Below are positions 3,674-44,033 of a stretch of 64,000 bases of DNA, in pieces. How positions within the stretch are numbered: position 1 is the stretch's first letter; each line of letters starts with the position of its first letter. The stretch lies in NCBI RefSeq assembly GCF_006345805.1, contig NC_043005.1:50468001-50532000 (forward strand), in the 5' to 3' direction. The translations under genes were made by a program, and so were the position numbers. The notes below the pieces were generated by a model that was not told where the DNA came from, did not search any database, and was given only the letters and a program-made list of their open reading frames with translations. The DNA comes from Octopus sinensis (Eukaryota).

Positions 3674-3895
3674 AAGGCGGCGACCTGTCAGAATCGTTAG
3701 CACGCCGGAAGAAAATGCTAAGCGACATTTCGTTTGTCATTACGTTCTGAGTTCAAATTCCACCACGGACCACTTTGCCTTTCATCATTTCGGAGTCGAT
3801 TGAAATAAATACCAATTATGCACTGGGGTCGATGTGATCGACGAGCTCCCTTCACCCTAAATTTCAGACCCTGTGTCTATAGTAGGAAAGATTAT
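3674..3895 (+). mobile_element. SINE family A copy (further copies ~42539-42720 +, 61690-61885 -, 61930-62070 -, 17595-17700 -, 3030-3120 +)
   Basis: Same AGGCGGCGA.CTG.CAGAATCGTTAGCACGCCGG head and CTTTGCCTTTCATC..TCGG.GTCGAT core. Confidence 0.8.
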
Positions 3896-8566: not shown

Positions 8567-8928
8567 CCCACCCTCGCCTGCACTTCCCGCCTCCTCATCC
8601 GTGCCACCTTCCGTTCCACCCGCTCCCTCCTTCACTCTCTTGACCACTAACTTCCCCAGGCTTACCTCCTCCTCTGCCCTCCACTCTTCACCCAACCCAT
8701 TCTCTGCTTAAAAAAGTAAAAATGTGACCGCGTGTGTACCGTTGGCGATTTCTTTCCTCCGTCTTCCCTTCTCTGGATCATTCCTATATTTCTGATGAAG
8801 AGCTCCGCTCGAAACGTTAAATACTCCATCTTCCCTTCTTTCCTGAGCGTCCAATAATACTATATTTGTCACACGTCCTCGCGTTGTTGTGTTTTCTCTT
8901 TGTGTTTTTCATGCTTGGATTAAACTTT
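8563..8928 (+). mobile_element. PLE/retrozyme-like fragment with hammerhead, embedded in (TA)n (family 2, copy 1)
   Basis: Flanked by (TA)n on both sides. 8722-8928 is homologous to the reverse complement of 49805-50012. Contains a hammerhead core. Confidence 0.7.
8787..8823 (+). ncRNA. Minimal type I hammerhead ribozyme, family 2
   Basis: TATTT-CTGATGA-A-GAGC-tcc-GCTC-GAAA-CG-TT-AAATA. Stem I UAUUU/AAAUA, stem II GAGC/GCUC, palindromic ACGU stem III of the kind described for PLE minimal hammerheads. Confidence 0.8.
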
Positions 8929-19892: not shown

Positions 19893-20024
19893 AATCATTT
19901 TTGTGTTTAGGAAAAACCTGTATGCGCAGTGATAACGAGATTTTCGCGAGCAGCCTAGTTAATTATTTTCTTCATAATTTGATATTTTTACATTCAAATA
20001 TGGTTAGTGCATCAAAAACAAAAC

Positions 20025-21550
20025 AAATAATGAAAAGTGGGAAAAAGAAGGTTAACTTTCTACAGATTGGTTTCCAATGGGGAGAGACAGGAGAGGTTGA
20101 TTGTATTGAATATAGAATAGCAAAGGAACCAATGAAGACTAACGAACTGAAAATCGATCAAAATTCTAGATGTCCTACTTCGATTGGTAAATCCAAAGAT
20201 TATTTTGTGAAAATTCTTAAAGATCAGTCAATTTGTTGATTTCTTTAAGAATGTTAATACCACAGATTAAAATATAATTGCAGCGTGGTAGACACATATT
20301 GGCCATTGAAAACAAACAAAAAGACCATTAACTTAATGTTTGGTGATAAAATTTTCATCCACTAACTGACGCGGTCATTGATGTGGTCACTGCCGCGGTC
20401 ACTGATGCGGTCACTGACGCATTTCCACTGCATCTGGTTTATGGTGAGGTTGTTGGTTGACATATATAAGTTCCAAGGTTCTCCACATATTTGATTTCTG
20501 AAGTTATTGTCGAATAAGTGCTTCTCAGATTATTGCCGAGAAGCTTCTGATGCCTGAAAGACTTGTGTGTATAGAATTTCTTTGAAAGAAATCTGTGTCT
20601 TTTCTGAGACAAATTTCACTTTCTAGGGAAACTGTTAAATGAAGGTAATTAAGAAAAAAAAGTCTGAACATCTATATGAGCAACCAAACGAGATTGTACA
20701 AAGACTTTAATTTTCATGGTAAATTGACGAAACTGTTATTCATAACCATAATCCTTTCAAAACTTAAGTTTGATTTATAACATCCGCAATTGCTGAGAGA
20801 AGAAGCTAAATCCTCCTGAACTGATTGAAGTGAAACAGTACCTAGAGGATCAACAGTGAAATAGTTTGATTTAGATTATTTCAGATGATGCTGGTGCAAT
20901 GGTTGGTAAAGAAAAAGGTTTTATAAAAAGTTTGAAAAAATTGTGCCACATATATTATGTGTACTGCTTTATTAACATACAATACTTAATGGTAACACAG
21001 CTTAGTGGTAACATGATAAATGCTGTTTTTGGTGATAGCTCGGCAATTAATTTTATCTACACTAATGATTTTAATGATAGAATTTATACACAATTTTTAT
21101 TTTTATGATAAGGAATGTAAAACTTGGGTTCGGCACATGGAAGTATGATAACTATCGAAGAAGAATAGCCTGTACAGTGTAGTTACCCTGTGGGAGATAC
21201 TAATCAATTTTTGACAGTTCATATCACCGAATAGACAGAAAAATTAATAGATGAGGAAATATAAAGCAAAGATTTTGTTTGCTTAAGGGATATATTCAAG
21301 TCAATCAACAAATTAAATCTGATATTCTAAGGACAAAAGTTTGACATGAAAAAGTGTAAAAAAAATTTTAAATCTCACAAAAAATTGCTTTATTGGAAGA
21401 ATCGATGAATCGCTTGGAAAGAAATAACAAAAACATGTCTGTTTTCAAGAACTTGACATAGCAGTCCAATAGAAGATTATATCTAAGATTACGGAGAACA
21501 AATGAAGAGCCCATATTGGAATTTCGAAAACAGATTGCGATATAAAAATA
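20025..21550 (+). pseudogene. Highly decayed hAT (Charlie/Buster, ZBED5-like) transposase
   Basis: FLQIGF...EPMKTNELK...GKSKDYF (BED-finger-like), SDDAGAMVGKEKGF...YCFINIQYL (TDGA..M.G...HC..H...L-like), AINFI..NDRIY, and HMEV**LSK (HTEVRWLSK-like), in the expected order with stops and frameshifts. Confidence 0.72.
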
Positions 21551-22010
21551 GCAGCATAATACTCTAAATTATGATGCTACGAACCAATGAACACACAGAC
21601 CCCATCACCACCACCACCACCACCACCACCATAATTTTTGGTGAAATTGCTGTAAATGAAAGAAAATTAAGAATTGAAAAATTTATGCTAATTACTGACA
21701 CAAAACCATAAATTTGAAAACTGGATCAATCAACACCATAATTTCATTTTCAACGACTGATTTGTAAAGCAGGTATTTTTTTAATCTTTATTTTTCTGAT
21801 TTCAGCGACAGAGTCAGACAAAAGAGAAACAGACCAAATGTTAACGAGCGCGACTGTGCAACTGAAATTGAATCAGGCTCTTGAGAGCAAGACACCAAAA
21901 ATGACCCCAAAATAACAAGATTTTTAATATAGTTTAGCGAAATACCTAATGTGGGAGAGAGTTATAGTCGATTGTTTAAGCGTACGATATGAATGTGGTT
22001 AATATTATCA

Positions 22011-22460
22011 AGGGCGGCGAGCTGGCAGAAACGTTAGCACGCCGGGCGAAATGCGTAGCGGTATTTCGTCTGCCGTTACGTTCTGAGTTCAAATTCTGCC
22101 GAGGTCGACTTTGCCTTTCATCCTTTTGGGGTCGATAAATTAAGTACCAGTTATGCACTGGGGTAAATGCAATCGATTTAATCCCTTTGTCTGTCCTTGT
22201 TTGTTCTCTCTGTGTTTAGCTCCTTGTAGGTAGTAAAGAAATGGGTATTTCGCCAATCGCTACGTTCTGAGTTCAAATTCCGCTGATGTCGACTTCACCT
22301 TTCATCCTTTTGGGGTCGATAAAATGAGTACCAGTGAAATACTGGGGTCGATGTGATCCACCAATTCTGCACGCAAATTTCAGGTCTTGTGCGTAGAACG
22401 AATTATTATTATCGTTATTAAGGCGGCGAACTAGCAGAATCGTTACCATGTCGGACAAAA
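22011..22460 (+). mobile_element. SINE family A tandem/dimeric cluster
   Basis: A full copy at 22011-22242, a second headless copy to ~22400, and a head fragment at 22420-22460. Confidence 0.85.
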
Positions 22461-22933
22461 TTTTGGACTAAAACAAAATGGAGACGAACACCAATTTTTC
22501 TATGTGATCGGCTTGAAGAATTGTCGTGATATTTTCTTTACATGAAACCGACGCTAACCTTAATACATAAATAAAGTATATGTATGTATGTATGTATGTA
22601 TGTATGAATAAGAAATCTTGCATAGCTACTAAAGTAATCTAGAGATATAGGAAAGATATCACTCTAGCTTGATCAGTGCCAATAAACTTGGAATAATTGA
22701 ATAAGTATGTGCTTCAGATGGAATAGAGTGTTCAGAATCTGGCAACCATAAAGAACATAAAACTCGGCTTATATCATAAACACAACATATGCACAGATAC
22801 ATACTTACTTAAATACATACATGTGCATATGTGTGTGTGTGTGTATGTGTTTAGTGTGCATGTGTTTGGTGTGAATGTGTGTGTGTGCGCGCATATATGT
22901 GTGCATTTATATATATATATATATATATAATAT

Positions 22934-22967
<34 letters not shown>

Positions 22968-23008
22968 ATATATATATATATATTATATATATATATATAT
23001 ATACGATA

Positions 23009-23070
23009 CCCGAGGACAGTCTGTTTCTGGATTTGTGGGTAAAACGCCACTTTTCCTTCATCAGCTCAGA
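23009..23070 (-). ncRNA. Minimal type I hammerhead ribozyme (first of 3 minus-strand copies; TCATCAG at 23058, 23619, 24179)
   Basis: Reverse complement of the motif at 24375-24436 (CCCGAG GACAGTCTGTTTC...TCATCAG CTCAGA). Confidence 0.78.
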
Positions 23071-24374
23071 GATTTCTTCTTATTTAGATTTGAAAATACT
23101 AAGAATCAAACATACCCGTCCGATATCTGTAACATCGGACAAACCATGCCAGACACCCAGTACTAGCGAATCCAAAAATACGAATGAGATCTATTATTCT
23201 CCCTGTCCACCCACGTGAGTCATAGAGCATTACATTTCTACAGAGGTAAAAACTGTAGTTCAAATTCTTGGAGAGAAAAGTATTATATTGTCATCAAAAA
23301 AGGGGGTAGAATTAATTAATTGTTAATAAATTCGACCAAGCAGTATTCGGTATGTAAAGACCATTTACGGTGTATTTGAAGTATTAATTTATAAAAATAT
23401 GGTAAAGTAAAAAATTCACTTTACCACACACCGAACTTTTCAGAAATAGCAGCCAAAAATATGGCTATTTCTTCAACTGCAAATAAAAGTCTCCAGACAA
23501 TGCATACTCAGAAAATAACTCACATAGGTATAAGGGAAAAACAATGAAAGATCACATCCATATACGATACCCGAGGACAGTCTGTTTCTGGATTTGTGGG
23601 TAAAACGCCACTTTTCCTTCATCAGCTCAGAGATTTCTTCTTATTTAGATTTGAAAATACTAAGAATCAAACATACCCGTCCGATATCTGTAACATCGGA
23701 CAAACCATGCCAGACACCCAGTACTAGCGAATCCAAAAATACGAATGAGATCTATTATTCTCCCTGTCCACCCACGTGAGTCATAGAGCATTACATTTCT
23801 ACAGAGGTAAAAACTGTAGTTCAAATTCTTGGAGAGAAAAGTATTATATTGTCATCAAAAAAGGGGGTAGAATTAATTAATTGTTAATAAATTCGACCAA
23901 GCAGTATTCGGTATGTAAAGACCATTTACGGTGTATTTGAAGTATTAATTTATAAAAATATGGTAAAGTAAAAAATTCACTTTACCACACACCGAACTTT
24001 TCAGAAATAGCAGCCAAAAATATGGCTATTTCTTCAACTGCAAATAAAAGTCTCCAGACAATGCATACTCAGAAAATAACTCACATAGGTATAAGGGAAA
24101 AACAATGAAAGATCACATCCATATACGATACCCGAGGACAGTCTGTTTCTGGATTGTGGGTAAAACGCCACTTTTCCTTCATCAGCTCAGAGATTTCTTC
24201 TTATTTAGATTTGAAAATACTAAGAATCAAACATACCCGTCCGATATCTGTAACATCGGACAAACCATGCCAGACACCCAGTACTAGCGAGTCTGGCATG
24301 GTTTGTCCGATGTTACAGATATCGGACGGGTATGTTTGATTCTTAGTATTTTCAAATCTAAATAAGAAGAAATC

Positions 24375-24436
24375 TCTGAGCTGATGAAGGAAAAGTGGCG
24401 TTTTACCCACAAATCCAGAAACAGACTGTCCTCGGG
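24375..24436 (+). ncRNA. Minimal type I hammerhead ribozyme (first of 8 plus-strand copies; CUGAUGA at 24381, 24940, 25501, 26063, 26622, 27183, 27742, 28300)
   Basis: TCTGAG-CTGATGA-A-GGA-aaa-GTGG..CCAC-aaa-TCC-A-GAAA-CAG-A-CTG-TC-CTCGGG. Stem I UCUGAG/CUCGGG (2 G-U pairs), stem II GGA/UCC plus GUGG/CCAC, stem III ACAG/CUGU with a 1-nt loop, GUC cleavage triplet ending at 24430. The base of stem II is non-canonical (A opposite A). Confidence 0.78.
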
Positions 24437-27400
24437 TATCGTATATGGATGTGATCTTCATTGTTTTTCCCTTATACCTATGTGAGTTATTTTCTGAGTA
24501 TGCATTGTCTGGAGACTTTTATTTGCAGTTGAAGAAATAGCCATATTTTTGGCTGCTATTCTGAAAAGTTCGGTGTGTGGTAAAGTGAATTTTTTACTTT
24601 ACCATATTTTTATAAATTAATACTTCAAATACACCGTAAATGGTCTTTACATACCGAATACTGCTTGGTCGAATTTATTAACAATTAATTAATTCTACCC
24701 CCTTTTTTGATGACAATATAATACTTTTCTCTCCAAGAATTTGAACTACAGTTTTTACCTCTGTAGAAATGTAATGCTCTATGACTCACGTGGGTGGACA
24801 GGGAGAATAATAGATCTCATTCGTATTTTTGGATTCGCTAGTACTGGGTGTCTGGCATGGTTTGTCCGATGTTACAGATATCGGACGGGTATGTTTGATT
24901 CTTAGTATTTTCAAATCTAAATAAGAAGAAATCTCTGAGCTGATGAAGGAAAAGTGGCGTTTTACCCACAAATCCAGAAACAGACTGTCCTCGGGTATCG
25001 TATATGGATGTGATCTTTCATTGTTTTTCCCTTATACCTATGTGAGTTATTTTCTGAGTATGCATTGTCTGGAGACTTTTATTTGCAGTTGAAGAAATAG
25101 CCATATTTTTGGCTGCTATTTCTGAAAAGTTCGGTGTGTGGTAAAGTGAATTTTTTTACTTTACCATATTTTTATAATTAATACTTCAAATACACCGTAA
25201 ATGGTCTTTACATACCGAATACTGCTTGGTCGAATTTATTAACAATTAATTAATTCTACCCCCTTTTTTGATGACAATATAATACTTTTCTCTCCAAGAA
25301 TTTGAACTACAGTTTTTACCTCTGTAGAAATGTAATGCTCTATGACTCACGTGGGTGGACAGGGAGAATAATAGATCTCATTCGTATTTTTGGATTCGCT
25401 AGTACTGGGTGTCTGGCATGGTTTGTCCGATGTTACAGATATCGGACGGGTATGTTTGATTCTTAGTATTTTCAAATCTAAATAAGAAGAAATCTCTGAG
25501 CTGATGAAGGAAAAGTGGCGTTTTACCCACAAATCCAGAAACAGACTGTCCTCGGGTATCGTATATGGATGTGATCTTTCATTGTTTTTCCCTTATACCT
25601 ATGTGAGTTATTTTCTGAGTATGCATTGTCTGGAGACTTTTATTTGCAGTTGAAGAAATAGCCATATTTTTGGCTGCTATTTCTGAAAAGTTCGGTGTGT
25701 GGTAAAGTGAATTTTTTTACTTTACCATATTTTTATAAATTAATACTTCAAATACACCGTAAATGGTCTTTACATACCGAATACTGCTTGGTCGAATTTA
25801 TTAACAATTAATTAATTCTACCCCCTTTTTTGATGACAATATAATACTTTTCTCTCCAAGAATTTGAACTACAGTTTTTACCTCTGTAGAAATGTAATGC
25901 TCTATGACTCACGTGGGTGGACAGGGAGAATAATAGATCTCATTCGTATTTTTGGATTCGCTAGTACTGGGTGTCTGGCATGGTTTGTCCGATGTTACAG
26001 ATATCGGACGGGTATGTTTGATTCTTAGTATTTTCAAATCTAAATAAGAAGAAATCTCTGAGCTGATGAAGGAAAAGTGCGTTTTACCCACAAATCCAGA
26101 AACAGACTGTCCTCGGGTATCGTATATGGATGTGATCTTTCATTGTTTTTCCCTTATACCTATGTGAGTTATTTTCTGAGTATGCATTGTCTGGAGACTT
26201 TTATTTGCAGTTGAAGAAATAGCCATATTTTTGGCTGCTATTTCTGAAAAGTTCGGTGTGTGGTAAAGTGAATTTTTTACTTTACCATATTTTTATAAAT
26301 TAATACTTCAAATACACCGTAAATGGTCTTTACATACCGAATACTGCTTGGTCGAATTATTAACAATTAATTAATTCTACCCCCTTTTTTGATGACAATA
26401 TAATACTTTTCTCTCCAAGAATTTGAACTACAGTTTTTACCTCTGTAGAAATGTAATGCTCTATGACTCACGTGGGTGGACAGGGAGAATAATAGATCTC
26501 ATTCGTATTTTTGGATTCGCTAGTACTGGGTGTCTGGCATGGTTTGTCCGATGTTACAGATATCGGACGGGTATGTTTGATTCTTAGTATTTTCAAATCT
26601 AAATAAGAAGAAATCTCTGAGCTGATGAAGGAAAAGTGGCGTTTTACCCACAAATCCAGAAACAGACTGTCCTCGGGTATCGTATATGGATGTGATCTTT
26701 CATTGTTTTTCCCTTATACCTATGTGAGTTATTTTCTGAGTATGCATTGTCTGGAGACTTTTATTTGCAGTTGAAGAAATAGCCATATTTTTGGCTGCTA
26801 TTTCTGAAAAGTTCGGTGTGTGGTAAAGTGAATTTTTTTACTTTACCATATTTTTATAAATTAATACTTCAAATACACCGTAAATGGTCTTTACATACCG
26901 AATACTGCTTGGTCGAATTTATTAACAATTAATTAATTCTACCCCCTTTTTTGATGACAATATAATACTTTTCTCTCCAAGAATTGAACTACAGTTTTTA
27001 CCTCTGTAGAAATGTAATGCTCTATGACTCACGTGGGTGGACAGGGAGAATAATAGATCTCATTCGTATTTTTGGATTCGCTAGTACTGGGTGTCTGGCA
27101 TGGTTTGTCCGATGTTACAGATATCGGACGGGTATGTTTGATTCTTAGTATTTTCAAATCTAAATAAGAAGAAATCTCTGAGCTGATGAAGGAAAAGTGG
27201 CGTTTTACCCACAAATCCAGAAACAGACTGTCCTCGGGTATCGTATATGGATGTGATCTTCATTGTTTTTCCCTTATACCTATGGAGTTATTTTCTGAGT
27301 ATGCATTGTCTGGAGACTTTTATTTGCAGTTGAAGAAATAGCCATATTTTTGGCTGCTATTTCTGAAAAGTTCGGTGTGTGGTAAAGTGAATTTTTTACT

Positions 27401-28656
27401 TTACCATATTTTTATAAATTAATACTTCAAATACACCGTAAATGGTCTTTACATACCGAATACTGCTTGGTCGAATTTATTAACAATTAATTAATTCTAC
27501 CCCCTTTTTTGATGACAATATAATACTTTTCTCTCCAAGAATTTGAACTACAGTTTTTACCTCTGTAGAAATGTAATGCTCTATGACTCACGTGGGTGGA
27601 CAGGGAGAATAATAGATCTCATTCGTATTTTTGGATTCGCTAGTACTGGGTGTCTGGCATGGTTTGTCCGATGTTACAGATATCGGACGGGTATGTTTGA
27701 TTCTTAGTATTTTCAAATCTAAATAAGAAGAAATCTCTGAGCTGATGAAGGAAAAGTGGCGTTTTACCCACAAATCCAGAAACAGACTGTCCTCGGGTAT
27801 CGTATATGGATGTGATCTTTCATTGTTTTTCCCTTATACCTATGTGAGTTATTTTCTGAGTATGCATTGTCTGGAGACTTTTATTTGCAGTTGAAGAAAT
27901 AGCCATATTTTTGGCTGCTATTTCTGAAAAGTTCGGTGTGTGGTAAAGTGAATTTTTTACTTTACCATATTTTTATAAATTAATACTTCAAAACACCGTA
28001 AATGGTCTTTACATACCGAATACTGCTTGGTCGAATTTATTAACAATTAATTAATTCTACCCCCTTTTTTGATGACAATATAATACTTTTCTCTCCAAGA
28101 ATTTGAACTACAGTTTTTACCTCTGTAGAAATGTAATGCTCTATGACTCACGTGGGTGGACAGGAGAATAATAGATCTCATTCGTATTTTTGGATTCGCT
28201 AGTACTGGGTGTCTGGCATGGTTTGTCCGATGTTACAGATATCGGACGGGTATGTTTGATTCTTAGTATTTTCAAATCTAAATAGAAGAAATCTCTGAGC
28301 TGATGAAGGAAAAGTGGCGTTTTACCCACAAATCCAGAAACAGACTGTCCTCGGGTATCGTATATGGATGTGATCTTTCATTGTTTTTCCTTATACCTAT
28401 GTGAGTTATTTTCTGAGTATGCATTGTCTGGAGACTTTTATTTGCAGTTGAAGAAATAGCCATATTTTTGGCTGCTATTTCTGAAAAGTTCGGTGTGTGG
28501 TAAAGTGAATTTTTTACTTACCATATTTTTATAAATTAATACTATATATATATATATATATATAAATTCATCTACCAAGACGGACAGAAACCTAGGAATG
28601 CATTCATCTATACGCCTATACAACGTACGTATTTCTATACATACATATGTATCAAC

Positions 28657-28721
<65 letters not shown>

Positions 28722-29215
28722 CAGAAAGGAAGAGAGAGAAGGGGACAGAGAGTGTGAGAGAGACCTCACTCTCTCTCTCTCTCTTTGTGTCTTATGAATA
28801 TTCGTGCGTGTTCGTGTATGTAAATGGACACAGATACGTACAAATATACATATAGATAACCGCACACGCATGGAAAGTATAGATAGCCGTTATATTTAAG
28901 AAGACCGTAGTATACCCGCCATCTTCTTTTCCCCCGTCTGTATATTCATCAATATTTTGTGTGCTGTCTGAAAAGTTTGCTCTCTGAACTGGAATGTCTC
29001 CCGGATTCTCTACTCGCTAAGACACCAGTCAACAATACAAGACGTTGTCTGACATACTCACTTACCTTTAACTCTCTCTCTCTCCATTTCTTTCTCTTTC
29101 CCCGTTCTTCTCCGTACTTAGTTCTTTTGTTCATATACTATATCATCCACGTACACATACATTCACGCAACCACAAATATGTATGTATGTACGTATGTAT
29201 GTATCTATGTGTGCA

Positions 29216-29260
29216 TATCCATCCATCCATCCATCCATCCATCCATCCATCCATCCATCA

Positions 29261-29344
<84 letters not shown>

Positions 29345-29345
29345 C

Positions 29346-29402
<57 letters not shown>

Positions 29403-29417
29403 TTATCAATCTCTTTC

Positions 29418-29482
<65 letters not shown>

Positions 29483-29514
29483 ATATCTATCTATCTATCT
29501 ATCTAACTATCTAT
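29216..29514. repeat. (TCCA)n/(TCTA)n microsatellite
   Basis: Seen directly. Confidence 0.95.
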
Positions 29515-29846
29515 GTGTCTCTGTCTTTCTGACTGCCTATCTGCCTGTCTCTCTATATATGCGTGTAGACATGCGTGTTTGTGGGGCAGCGGGTACATCT
29601 GTGTGCGTGTGTGTGTGTTTGTGTGTGTAACTAGACGCCAAAGAGATTGATGTTGGTCTGCATCGGCAAGTTCTGTGTTATTTAGTAAAATCAATAAAGA
29701 AGATTATAGTGAACTTACCGCGAGAAGTGGACAATACAACGTTTCGGACTGTAATCCTACTTCAAATTTTCCCCGAAGAAGATCACTGTCCGAAACACTG
29801 TATTTTCCACTCCTCACAGCAAGTTCACTGTAATCTTTTTCGATTT

Positions 29847-29893
<47 letters not shown>

Positions 29894-29928
29894 TATATAT
29901 GTATATACACACACATATATGTGTATGC

Positions 29929-29981
<53 letters not shown>

Positions 29982-31324
29982 TATAGATATATGTATGTGT
30001 GTAGGTGTATATATATATATATATATATTGAATTTTGATTGAACTTTGTCCTATCACTTAATAATCCTGACACTTTCGCAGCAAACGACTCTAGTCAAAC
30101 AAGAAACTGTGTGTGTCAGAGATCGACGTATGCATGCTGAGGTAAAACCACGTGCGTTTAAACTGTGGAATTTGTTGCATTGTATATGATGATTTTCTTT
30201 TCGGACTTCTTTCTTTTTATGCTATGATTAAAATAATGCCAGGAGCAAATATATCCCTCTCCGGTCTCTGCGTTTATGCGAGGCAAAGTTAGCTATCGCA
30301 GGGAAATTTTTACAACTACCAACAGAATGTGCTATGGATGCCTATCATTTGTTACGCAATGATTGGCTATCAGGTATCGTTTTACAATGAAATGTCATCC
30401 TTCAAAATCATCAAATTCATCAAATTCATCAATTGCTCAAACGATTTCACTAACCTACTTTGGAAATTACTCTCACTTTCATACGCAACTTTTTGTATTA
30501 CAAAAAAAATTCTTAGGCCATTTCTTCACCCGACTGTATCAGCGCACCCCAAACATTTCGAATGGCGAATTCAAAAACAGCAAATACTTCAAGATATACC
30601 TCTTTGAGAAACATCCATTGCTGCAGACCAGTGCTACCGCAAACGACAAACATATAACTTACATATACCCACACTTGCATATAAAACGCGTCATATACAC
30701 AGATGTACGTTATCTTTCAGTCACCACAACCATCAGCATCATAACATCATGCCACACATATGAAACACATCGACACTACTCAAACATACACATTCTTACT
30801 AGCACAAAAAGTTAATCACTACACCATACACACTACCTTACAAACAGATTTGACACATCATTGTTACCGTCGAACTTACTGTTGTAATTAACATCATCAC
30901 TACCACCAATACCACCAACACTTAATCTTTACTTACACTACGCCAGTACCCTCATCATATTCGCAGCTACCGCATTCACCGTCACTGTCAACACCAACAT
31001 ATCACTGTATATACACATACCATCAACAACACCACAACCACCAAAGTAAAAAAACAAAATCAATACCACTTACAACTATTGATGAGTCATTGTTAAGACA
31101 ATGAAATGAAAAAGATAGAAATCTATCATCAATGCATAATTAAATAGATAATTAAATAAATAAGTAAATAAATATATAATTAAAGACTCATGCCGCTACC
31201 CACAAAGTCATAATGACATATGATCACAAAGCGAAATGCTTCGAAATTCGGTTGGTGGTCATGTGATTTTACGGATATCAAAGTGAGTGGAGATATATAG
31301 GCAAGGTATATTATAATAATAATG

Positions 31325-31361
<37 letters not shown>

Positions 31362-31529
31362 TGATGATGATGATGATGATGATCATGATAATAATAATAA
31401 TAATAATAAAATGATTACTTTATTAACCACAGGGGTTTACATTAAGAAGACATTATGGACAGTAGAAACCACTATCATCAAACAAACAAAACAGACCAAG
31501 CAAACTTCAAATAAATAAATAAATAAGAG

Positions 31530-32150
31530 AATGGGTAGAAACAAATTGTGGAGCGGTGGAGCCAGAAGCCTCTGCATAGATAGTATATACTTCGAAGTTG
31601 AAAAGCTGATGTAGATCGAGCAACAGTGGCTGAGAAGCTCAGGACTGAAAGCAGAAAGTGAGGGTTTCATATTAGCGGCACAAGATCAAAGCCTGCTTAC
31701 CAAAAAATTACCAGACTAACGTTCTTCGGTTTTGACCCTGAATGCAGATTCTGCGACACATATGACGAAACAATAGACCATCTTATCTCGGGATGTCCTG
31801 TGCTGACATCAAATGATACAGTAGGACAGTATTTACATTGGGAAATATGTAAACAATACAACAGCAACAATCTTGCTTACTGGCATGAACATCATACTGA
31901 GCGAGTCGTTGAAGGTAAAACTCTCACCATCCTCTGGGATTTTCAAGTCCACATCAACAGAAAGATCTAGGCTAATCGACCAGACATAGTCATTAAAGAA
32001 CGGGGAGAAAATACTTGTAGACTAATAGATTTAAGTGTTCCCACTGATATCTGCAAAGGAATTTGACAATATTTTATCCTTCACTCGCCCTAGGACGCTA
32101 CCTGTGTCTCGGCAAGTGATCGTAACAACATGCACATTAAAAGTAACTAA
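31530..32150 (+). mobile_element. R4/Dong-like RLE non-LTR retrotransposon fragment (degenerate)
   Basis: Reads QWLRSSGLKAESEGFILAAQDQSL, CRFCDTYDETIDHLISGCP (CCHC knuckle) and ILWDFQV...NRPDIVIK...LIDLSVP (PD..D restriction-like endonuclease). Ends in (TAA)n. Confidence 0.85.
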
Positions 32151-43489: not shown

Positions 43490-43816
43490 TACAAGATAAG
43501 GGCAGAAGAAAAATTCTAATGCCAAATATGCCGAAACAAAAAATTGACGATAACCATTATAATTTATGCGTCTCGAAACAAACCGATAGAAATCTCTAAA
43601 AAATTCGTTATTTTCGGGGTTAATTCATAAGAAATGGGGAAAATTTCTTAGGGAAATTTTTTATGAATTAACCCCGAAATTGGACCAATACGGTAATAAC
43701 GAATTTTTTAGAGATTTTTATCGGTTTGTTTCGAGACGCATAAATTATAATGGTTATCGTCAATTTTTTGTTTCGGCATATTTTGCATTAGAATTTTTCT
43801 TCTGCCCTTATCTTGT
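43490..43816. repeat. Fold-back (hairpin) insertion, ~150-bp arms, within TA-rich sequence
   Basis: ACAAGATAAGGGCAGAAGAAAAATTCTAATGC...CGGGGTTAATTCATAA vs TTATGAATTAACCCCG...GCATTAGAATTTTTCTTCTGCCCTTATCTTGT. Confidence 0.9.
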
Positions 43817-44033
43817 TAATTATGTATAAATTTTACCTTTAAAGGCATTTTTTGATATGCTGGCCATTGATAAAATTTTTTTCCGGAAAAAATTTTATCC
43901 TTTATATATATATATATATATACCTGCTTATAAATACACACACACACACATACACACGTACGTATACGTATGTATTTGTATATGTATTATACATATGTAC
44001 CTATTATGTAGATATAGATGTATGAATATATTA

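Follow-up and report, generated by a model that had tools for sequence, protein, structure and literature searches.

The Array and Its Unit

This analysis concerns a tandem repeat with a hammerhead ribozyme motif in the genome of Octopus sinensis (NCBI RefSeq assembly GCF_006345805.1), located in a 64,000-nucleotide (nt) stretch of contig NC_043005.1 (positions 50,468,001 to 50,532,000) that is called the window here. About 9.9 copies of a 561-bp unit lie between two (TA)n runs, and this array is very probably one recent insertion of a retrozyme without long terminal repeats (a non-LTR retrozyme), a non-autonomous passenger of Penelope-like elements (PLEs). The original prediction, made from the letters of the window, had described a unit of about 561 bp in some ten near-identical copies, with (TA)n at both ends and no credible open reading frame (ORF), and all of this was borne out: full units are 99.1–100% identical, small indels being their sole differences, and the longest ATG-initiated ORF on either strand of the circularized unit, which has a GC content of 0.35, encodes 49 amino acids (aa). 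Eleven hammerhead-like cores are also present as predicted, three on the minus strand (23015–24185) and eight on the plus strand (24381–28349). Because the array is inverted, however, the cores do not follow the expected uniform spacing of about 560 bp, and no single read-through transcript of the kind envisaged could carry all 11 in sense. The inversion, two fixed 3' ends, sister families and a site-specific long interspersed nuclear element (LINE) were all absent from that prediction. The features of the array are listed below.

22908–23003, no strand: left target flank of the array, a (TA)n run (sequence view)
23003–24290, minus strand: left (inverted) arm, about 2.3 units (unit alignment)
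23009–23070, minus strand: hammerhead motif of the left arm, predicted cut at 23015
24276–24296, no strand: head-to-head junction between 24290 and 24291 (sequence view and end mapping)
24291–28543, plus strand: right arm, about 7.6 units (unit alignment)
24934–24995, plus strand: type I hammerhead motif of one unit, predicted cut after 24989
24990–25550, plus strand: one full 561-nt unit, position 1 being the nucleotide after the predicted cut
25174–25195, plus strand: first preferred 3' end, unit 185–206, with 60 of 115 outer ends in the family; putative start of reverse transcription
25268–25289, plus strand: second preferred 3' end, unit 279–300, with 30 of 115 outer ends
25414–25431, plus strand: the 18 bp (unit 425–442) duplicated by a Tx1-like LINE at other loci; empty here
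28544–28563, no strand: right target flank of the array, a (TA)n run (sequence view)

The arms are joined 5' to 5', the left at unit position 407 and the right at unit position 422, which creates an inverted repeat of about 1.27 kb with a spacer of about 15 nt. The outer 3' end of the left arm lies about 12 nt past the cut site and grades into (TA)n, while that of the right arm lies at unit position ~196, the most frequent end in the family, and is followed by (TA)n. The inverted repeat (23003–25580) is near-perfect; a transcript across it would give long double-stranded RNA, on which editing or silencing might act.

Hammerhead Motif and Predicted Fold

The motif reads, in order, stem I (6 bp), CUGAUGA, an extra A, stem II, another extra A, GAAA, CAGACUG, UC and the cut. 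Cleavage is predicted between GUC and CUCGGG, for example after C24430, the same site that had been predicted before; the remaining plus-strand cuts would fall after 25550, 26111, 26671, 27232, 27791 and 28349, and further minus-strand cuts at 23576 and 24137. The proposed minimal type I hammerhead is thus present as a motif, but its core departs from the canonical form, one extra A following A9 and the second preceding G12. A base between positions 9 and 10.1 is known from PLE hammerheads (PMC4209133), which have a palindromic stem III and act as dimers (PMC4209133; PMC6765202). Stem III of the octopus motif (ACAGACUGU) is unable to close as a hairpin and is self-complementary, with a self-pairing energy of −6.9 kcal/mol, so the ribozyme would need a dimer. 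The predicted fold of the linear 561-nt monomer has an energy of −168 kcal/mol (z = −8.35 against 100 shuffles), and as a circle the unit gives z = −7.0 (25 shuffles). A natural stretch with two cores can adopt a double-hammerhead fold of −186.6 kcal/mol, 0.6 kcal/mol from the free minimum of −187.2 kcal/mol.

Three points speak against ribozyme activity. At its base, stem II has an A opposite an A, which is non-canonical. A scan of positions 20000–32000 with Rfam, a check that the original prediction had suggested, returned no hammerhead family at E ≤ 1; it gave only hairpin-type microRNA models below their cut-offs, which are explained by the inversion junction and the microsatellites. In Xenopus, eight of nine predicted retrozyme dimers were uncleaved and one was cleaved in vitro (10.64898/2026.07.22.740005). 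Judged from motif and fold, the hammerhead of the unit is nevertheless probably an active ribozyme.

A Dispersed Family with Fixed 3' Ends

The family is dispersed and young and bears signs of retrotransposition, in agreement with the recent, non-coding repeat of retrozyme type that had been proposed. A 21-nt core pattern has 254 exact copies genome-wide, with none for the reversed control pattern, and a search with the unit gave at least 199 matches on many contigs from the 39 candidates scored of 1438 found at first look; the 150 listed are 94–100% identical. The mapped loci comprise the window, 38 chosen by score and a second set of 38 from the first 100 listed core places of the 254. Matches under 85–90% identity were excluded from counts, and the counts of ends and inversions refer to the 73 mapped loci without the LINE. 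No LTR structure was found in the mapped loci, where no search aimed at a PBS or PPT was made.

A head-to-head inversion is present in 42 of these 73 loci. The outer 3' ends number 115, of which 60 fall at unit 185–206 and 30 at unit 279–300, about 195 and 290 nt beyond the predicted ribozyme cut; together, the two 22-nt windows hold 90 of the 115 ends, against 7.8% expected under uniformity. These windows were drawn post hoc from the first locus set, which lessens the force of the contrast, and they recur in the second locus set and in two sister families. TA-rich DNA adjoins 99 of the 115 outer 3' ends, while the 122 5' ends are scattered along the unit.

Units of the same array differ by 0.36%, units of opposite arms by 0.29% and units of different arrays by 1.9% (89 loci; L137, a segmental duplicate of L136, was dropped from this comparison, and the duplicates L076, L097 and L098 from the unit-haplotype set), and each array has one haplotype. 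Twenty-five locus-private substitutions are fixed in all covering units, nine of them spanning three or more units, and this fits a bottleneck through a single monomer such as a circle, although the source arrays may be unsampled. Predicted pairs are broken by 22 of the 85 variants common to at least two loci, compared with 95 of 184 single-unit variants (Fisher p = 7e-5). The sparing of predicted pairs by shared variants points to a constraint on the unit at the RNA level, as far as can be judged from a test that uses one predicted fold and related, non-independent copies and counts sequencing errors among the single-unit variants, all of which reduce its weight. The 13 core positions carry none of the 85 shared variants and three of the 184 single-unit ones. 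No sequencing run listed with the repeat is recorded as RNA. In contigs of four sequencing runs, whose RNA nature is a guess, comparison with L134:407-6480 showed the joint of position 561 to position 1 and a LINE-free form in three of the four; the joint is also expected from tandem DNA, so nothing follows from it for expression or circles.

Sister Families

Two further families share this anatomy. A 583-nt unit aligns end to end with the 561-nt unit (score 108, shuffled maximum 4), and its copies are 96–100% identical and include inversions (L177:3708-4633 on C16 at 39.19 Mb; L193–L212). The 20 loci fetched have 3' ends mostly at 196–202 or 292–306, in (TA)n. In the 583-nt unit a canonical G-C pair closes the base of stem II, and stem III is a perfect palindrome. 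A 479-nt unit also aligns with the 561-nt unit (score 28, shuffled maximum −8), its alignment with the 583-nt unit not being significant, and the 3' ends at its 18 loci lie mostly at ~166 or ~250. All three diverged families retain the core though their stems I–III differ, and stem III is palindromic in each. The Tx1-like LINE adjoins none of the 38 sister-family loci.

The 479-nt family (L263, L255–L272) is older, with about 91% identity and 4969 first-look candidates, and a decayed, inverted relic of it (70–74% identity) lies in the window at 43496–43901. A hammerhead repeat beside a PLE in L169 was considered as the pseudo-LTR (pLTR) of that element and rejected, since it belongs to this third retrozyme family. 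More short, diverged relatives of the tail region occur in (TA)n at L173:7463-7907, L174:6632-6870 and L176:1321-1465, two of them with inverted arms; these are probably further families.

The sister families also bear on a different origin, that of a satellite which DNA-level duplication or a DNA transposon has spread and whose hammerhead is a leftover of the past or has arisen by chance. Unequal crossing-over also yields homogeneous arrays, and the lack of an Rfam match and the non-canonical core would suit this account. It is very improbable, however, given that the fixed 3' and free 5' ends are strand-polar, as reverse transcription predicts, that variants common to loci tend to spare predicted pairs, and that the core persists in three diverged families whose stems I–III differ and whose stem III is palindromic.

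Penelope-Like Elements as Candidate Partners

The insertions of the family carry the signature of PLEs, namely fixed internal 3' ends, an inverted 5' arm and a (TA)n microsatellite target. Inverted 5' copies and a (TA)n bias are PLE traits, linked in Neptune to a CX2-5CxxC linker (PMC8557442). The purified PLE protein of Anolis cleaves AT-rich DNA on both strands and extends both, and its cDNA starts at two internal sites 3' of the ribozyme of the element (PMC11167929). Mobilization by PLEs had been proposed from the start, and the insertion anatomy over 73 loci gives it stronger support than was then at hand.

The octopus genome itself carries intact ORFs of 775–781 aa that combine a reverse transcriptase (RT) with a GIY-YIG domain and have a linker of the CX2-5CxxC type. 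In one very young PLE family (L167, L303–L332) these ORFs are 775 aa long, and the hammerhead is a CCGAAGA variant in which stem II is flanked on both sides by an extra base and stem III is palindromic. Thirty of 32 measured 3' ends of this family lie about 136–143 or more than 158 nt past the cut and adjoin (TA)n, 15 of the ends reaching the 160-nt limit of the measure and continuing for 8–9 nt. In Neptune-like PLEs (L169:1174-4874, L172, L165, L166 and L213) an upstream open frame of 479 aa overlaps the 781-aa frame of the RT and endonuclease (EN), and such a two-ORF layout is unusual among PLEs. In L165, L166, L190 and L213 a U3-A8 hammerhead variant precedes a short tail.

The proposed movement is as follows. 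Read-through transcripts would self-cleave as double hammerheads, and the RT/GIY-YIG protein of a Neptune-like PLE would act in trans on the retrozyme RNA, binding the folded RNA 3' of the ribozyme and cutting both (TA)n strands. Synthesis of cDNA would begin within the RNA, near +195 or +290, and priming from both broken ends would produce two arms, which would afterwards be joined at their 5' ends. The arms cross the cut site and only 2 of the 122 5' ends stop there, so the template would be uncut or re-ligated RNA; an uncut multimer and a ligated circle are evenly balanced as candidates for it.

It is conceivable, if improbable, that an autonomous PLE exists of which the unit forms just the pLTR or 3' end, each array then being a PLE insertion truncated on its 5' side. 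In its ends, inversions and target the family is PLE-like, and the sample leaves room for such an element, with 39 of 1438 candidates scored and 154 of the 254 core places outside the listing. Against this, up to eight full units follow one another without coding DNA, the sole recurring 5' neighbor in 76 loci is the LINE, and the PLE ORFs near a few loci are set apart by (TA)n and carry different pLTRs. The unit is joined to an RT and GIY-YIG ORF at none of the loci examined, which are part of the family, and the pLTRs of the PLE copies examined differ from it. The PLE ORFs beside L055 and L067 were rejected as partners, being separate insertions beyond (TA)n with other ends, and those beside L233 and L240, which are protein matches only, were not accepted.

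Several observations weigh against a retrozyme carried by PLEs. A profile of the conserved tail found no match in the pLTRs of the PLE copies examined, whose tails are shorter (about 65–75 or 140–170 nt), and among the PLE families sampled no fetched element shares the 3' tail of the unit significantly, so that there is no autonomous partner tied to it by sequence. In vitro, the Anolis PLE can dispense with ribozyme cleavage (PMC11167929). Among the 5' ends of the 73 loci, clustering at the cut site was searched for and the two ends at position 1 were all that was found, so the DNA bears no trace of cut linear templates. Seven private variants, for example in L034 and L053, occur in only part of the units of an array, which is not expected from a single rolling circle.

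A LINE Specific for the Unit

The recurring neighbor is a LINE of 5497 nt, found 5' of unit position 425 at four of the 38 loci chosen by score and absent from that position in the second set of 38. The upstream sequence common to those four loci was considered as a PLE body and rejected, since it is the LINE with a duplication on both sides. Its 1131-aa frame has Pfam matches to an AP endonuclease (PF03372), an RT (PF00078) and zf-RVT (PF13966), while the 589-aa frame (ORF1) has a CCHC knuckle recognizable by eye and no Pfam match; ORF1 and ORF2 are intact in L069. The label Tx1-like refers to domain layout and behavior rather than phylogeny, as the homologue search gave no informative names.

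Among 39 LINE 3' ends viewed of the 40 best matches to the 3' end of the LINE, 16 continue into the unit from 425/426, four into the 17–18-nt duplication and then another LINE, and 19 into other sequence. Ends in the unit thus number 20 of 39 (14 of the 16 best), with a target-site duplication, a share above the >20% of flanks in one repeat that serves as a criterion of target specificity (Kojima 2015, PMC4494074). The 5' ends agree, all 14 examined beginning at the same base after 442 and two more likewise, and every unit-borne copy lies in the hammerhead sense. The copies occupy several unit haplotypes and their 3' junctions differ slightly, which points to independent insertions. There is therefore little doubt that the LINE is site-specific for the unit, with an 18-bp duplication. 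Its target at 425–442 falls, in the predicted fold, in the 5' arm of the hairpin preceding the ribozyme. Three to six of the LINE 5' flanks share changes at 420–436 that are absent from the 3' copy of the duplication, from which we infer that a short upstream stretch of target travels with the LINE RNA.

Could this LINE instead be the enzyme donor that moves the repeat, in a partnership like that of a SINE? The intact ORF1 and ORF2 and the 20 of 39 viewed 3' ends within the unit would favor such a role. The LINE, however, duplicates 17–18 bp at a defined non-TA site, whereas the repeat ends in (TA)n, and the two have no common 3' tail. The sister families show the same anatomy with the LINE at none of 38 loci. 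In L1 twin priming the two arms do not cover the same RNA region, whereas both arms of the repeat often span the same region. A donor role for the LINE is therefore quite improbable, and PLEs are the preferred source of the enzyme.

For the LINE, the repeat would be a safe, transcribed landing site. Inserted in the hammerhead sense, it would be flanked by ribozymes cutting 442 nt before and 137 nt after it. R2 frees its transcript from read-through RNA by its own ribozyme. At L142 the LINE is cut at 3828 and passes with a 3-nt overlap directly into an inverted unit arm without a duplication, and at L144/L145 (C9:102.29-102.30 Mb) two LINE-plus-unit arms stand head-to-head with no unit DNA in the middle. 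The outer ends of the latter lie at unit 203 and 266, the second followed by a short piece resembling the second preferred end, and the two LINE arms differ by 6.6 per 1000 and have no common private change, as in other pairs of copies. These structures fit the copying of a composite RNA, and later deletion fits equally well; hitchhiking of the LINE within retrozyme RNA is accordingly a real possibility, set a little below an even chance. More tentative, and on balance doubtful, is a three-tier chain in which a circular hammerhead RNA borrows the enzyme of an active PLE, and the LINE, its endonuclease retargeted to the retrozyme, has its transcript cut from read-through RNA by the flanking ribozymes and is sometimes carried by PLEs, within retrozyme RNA, into fresh (TA)n targets.

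Slightly older relatives of the LINE (L147, L151, L155, L156, L159 and L160–L162) stack in two other multicopy targets, one of which is the head of an abundant SINE-like repeat, and this suggests recent target switching. A 90-bp repeat in the first ORF of the LINE has expanded in two elements (L141:1-3808 and L282), to about 40 copies in the one and to more than 10 in the other.

Other Repeats in the Window

To the left of the array, at 22010–22420, lie three adjoining copies or fragments of a SINE-like repeat starting AAGGCGGCGAGCTGGCAGAA. Minimal hammerhead motifs of PLE type, unrelated to the 561-nt unit, occur at 8792–8819 (plus strand), 29772–29800 (plus strand) and 49937–49903 (minus strand), each in a short 3' fragment of another element.

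Relation to Known Systems and Implications

Non-LTR retrozymes have been described in corals, mussels and salamanders, with circles of 150 to >1000 nt and PLEs as proposed partners (PMC7229834), and a recent preprint gives consensus lengths of 51–972 bp as well as pLTR homology, with PLE matches for 21 of 57 Xenopus families (10.64898/2026.07.22.740005). The octopus repeat resembles these metazoan retrozymes in its tandem non-coding units with one type I hammerhead each, its GC content below 45%, its lack of an LTR, its dispersed dimers to multimers and its co-occurrence with PLEs. Its size is likewise within the reported range: the original prediction had called the unit unusually large, but against these published lengths 561 nt is ordinary, and relatives of 583 and 479 nt exist in the same genome. 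It differs from the 21 Xenopus families in having no pLTR homologue in the PLEs examined. It differs from the published retrozymes also in being described here from its DNA and in that its insertion ends are resolved, with 3' ends at two fixed sites, a (TA)n target and arms placed head-to-head; the main text of PMC7229834 does not use the term 'inverted', and such anatomy was not seen in the available part of the preprint (bioRxiv 10.64898/2026.07.22.740005).

With EN-bearing PLEs (Neptune, and Poseidon PAc of Anolis), the unit shares a palindromic stem III, an extra base after A9, an inverted 5' copy, a microsatellite target and two internal 3' ends past the ribozyme (PMC11167929; PMC8557442). 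It differs from them in that it has no ORF, the whole element being the repeat, and in that its two 3' ends are about 95 nt apart rather than 30–40 nt.

Tx1 LINEs target RNA genes, microsatellites and other transposons (DNA and LTR), target-specific examples being Tx1L in Tx1D, Keno in U2 and Tx1-Mar in Mariner-N4 (Kojima 2015, PMC4494074). The octopus LINE is like these in its two ORFs, its AP endonuclease, RT and zinc finger, its single site in a multicopy repeat, its 17–18-bp duplication and its head-to-tail stacking around that duplication; it is unlike the known ones in that its target is a hammerhead retrozyme, entered in sense.

For cephalopods, 235 hammerhead matches were counted, and not described, in the giant squid genome (PMC6962438), and repeat annotation of Octopus vulgaris reports active L1-Tx1 and Penelope families in a paper whose main text contains neither 'ribozyme' nor 'retrozyme' (PMC13282606). 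The literature searched showed no cephalopod retrozyme and no retrozyme-targeting LINE, though Repbase, Dfam, subscription journals and supplements, which lay outside that search, may hold either.

In summary, the octopus repeat adds a new family to a known class and stands out by an unusually clear insertion signature of PLEs and by a LINE that targets one site in it. Accounts of the movement of animal retrozymes are still hypothetical, PLEs having been suggested because motifs are shared and the two kinds of element occur together. In this genome, three young families display the insertion signature of PLEs at the level of single nucleotides, beside intact candidate PLEs, and they point to an RNA region (unit ~60–292) and two start sites for a PLE protein. 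Together, the signature, the RNA region and the candidate PLEs open trans-mobilization to a direct test in the established in vitro assay for PLEs. The LINE would extend the list of Tx1-type targets to a ribozyme repeat and would represent a very recent case of endonuclease retargeting.

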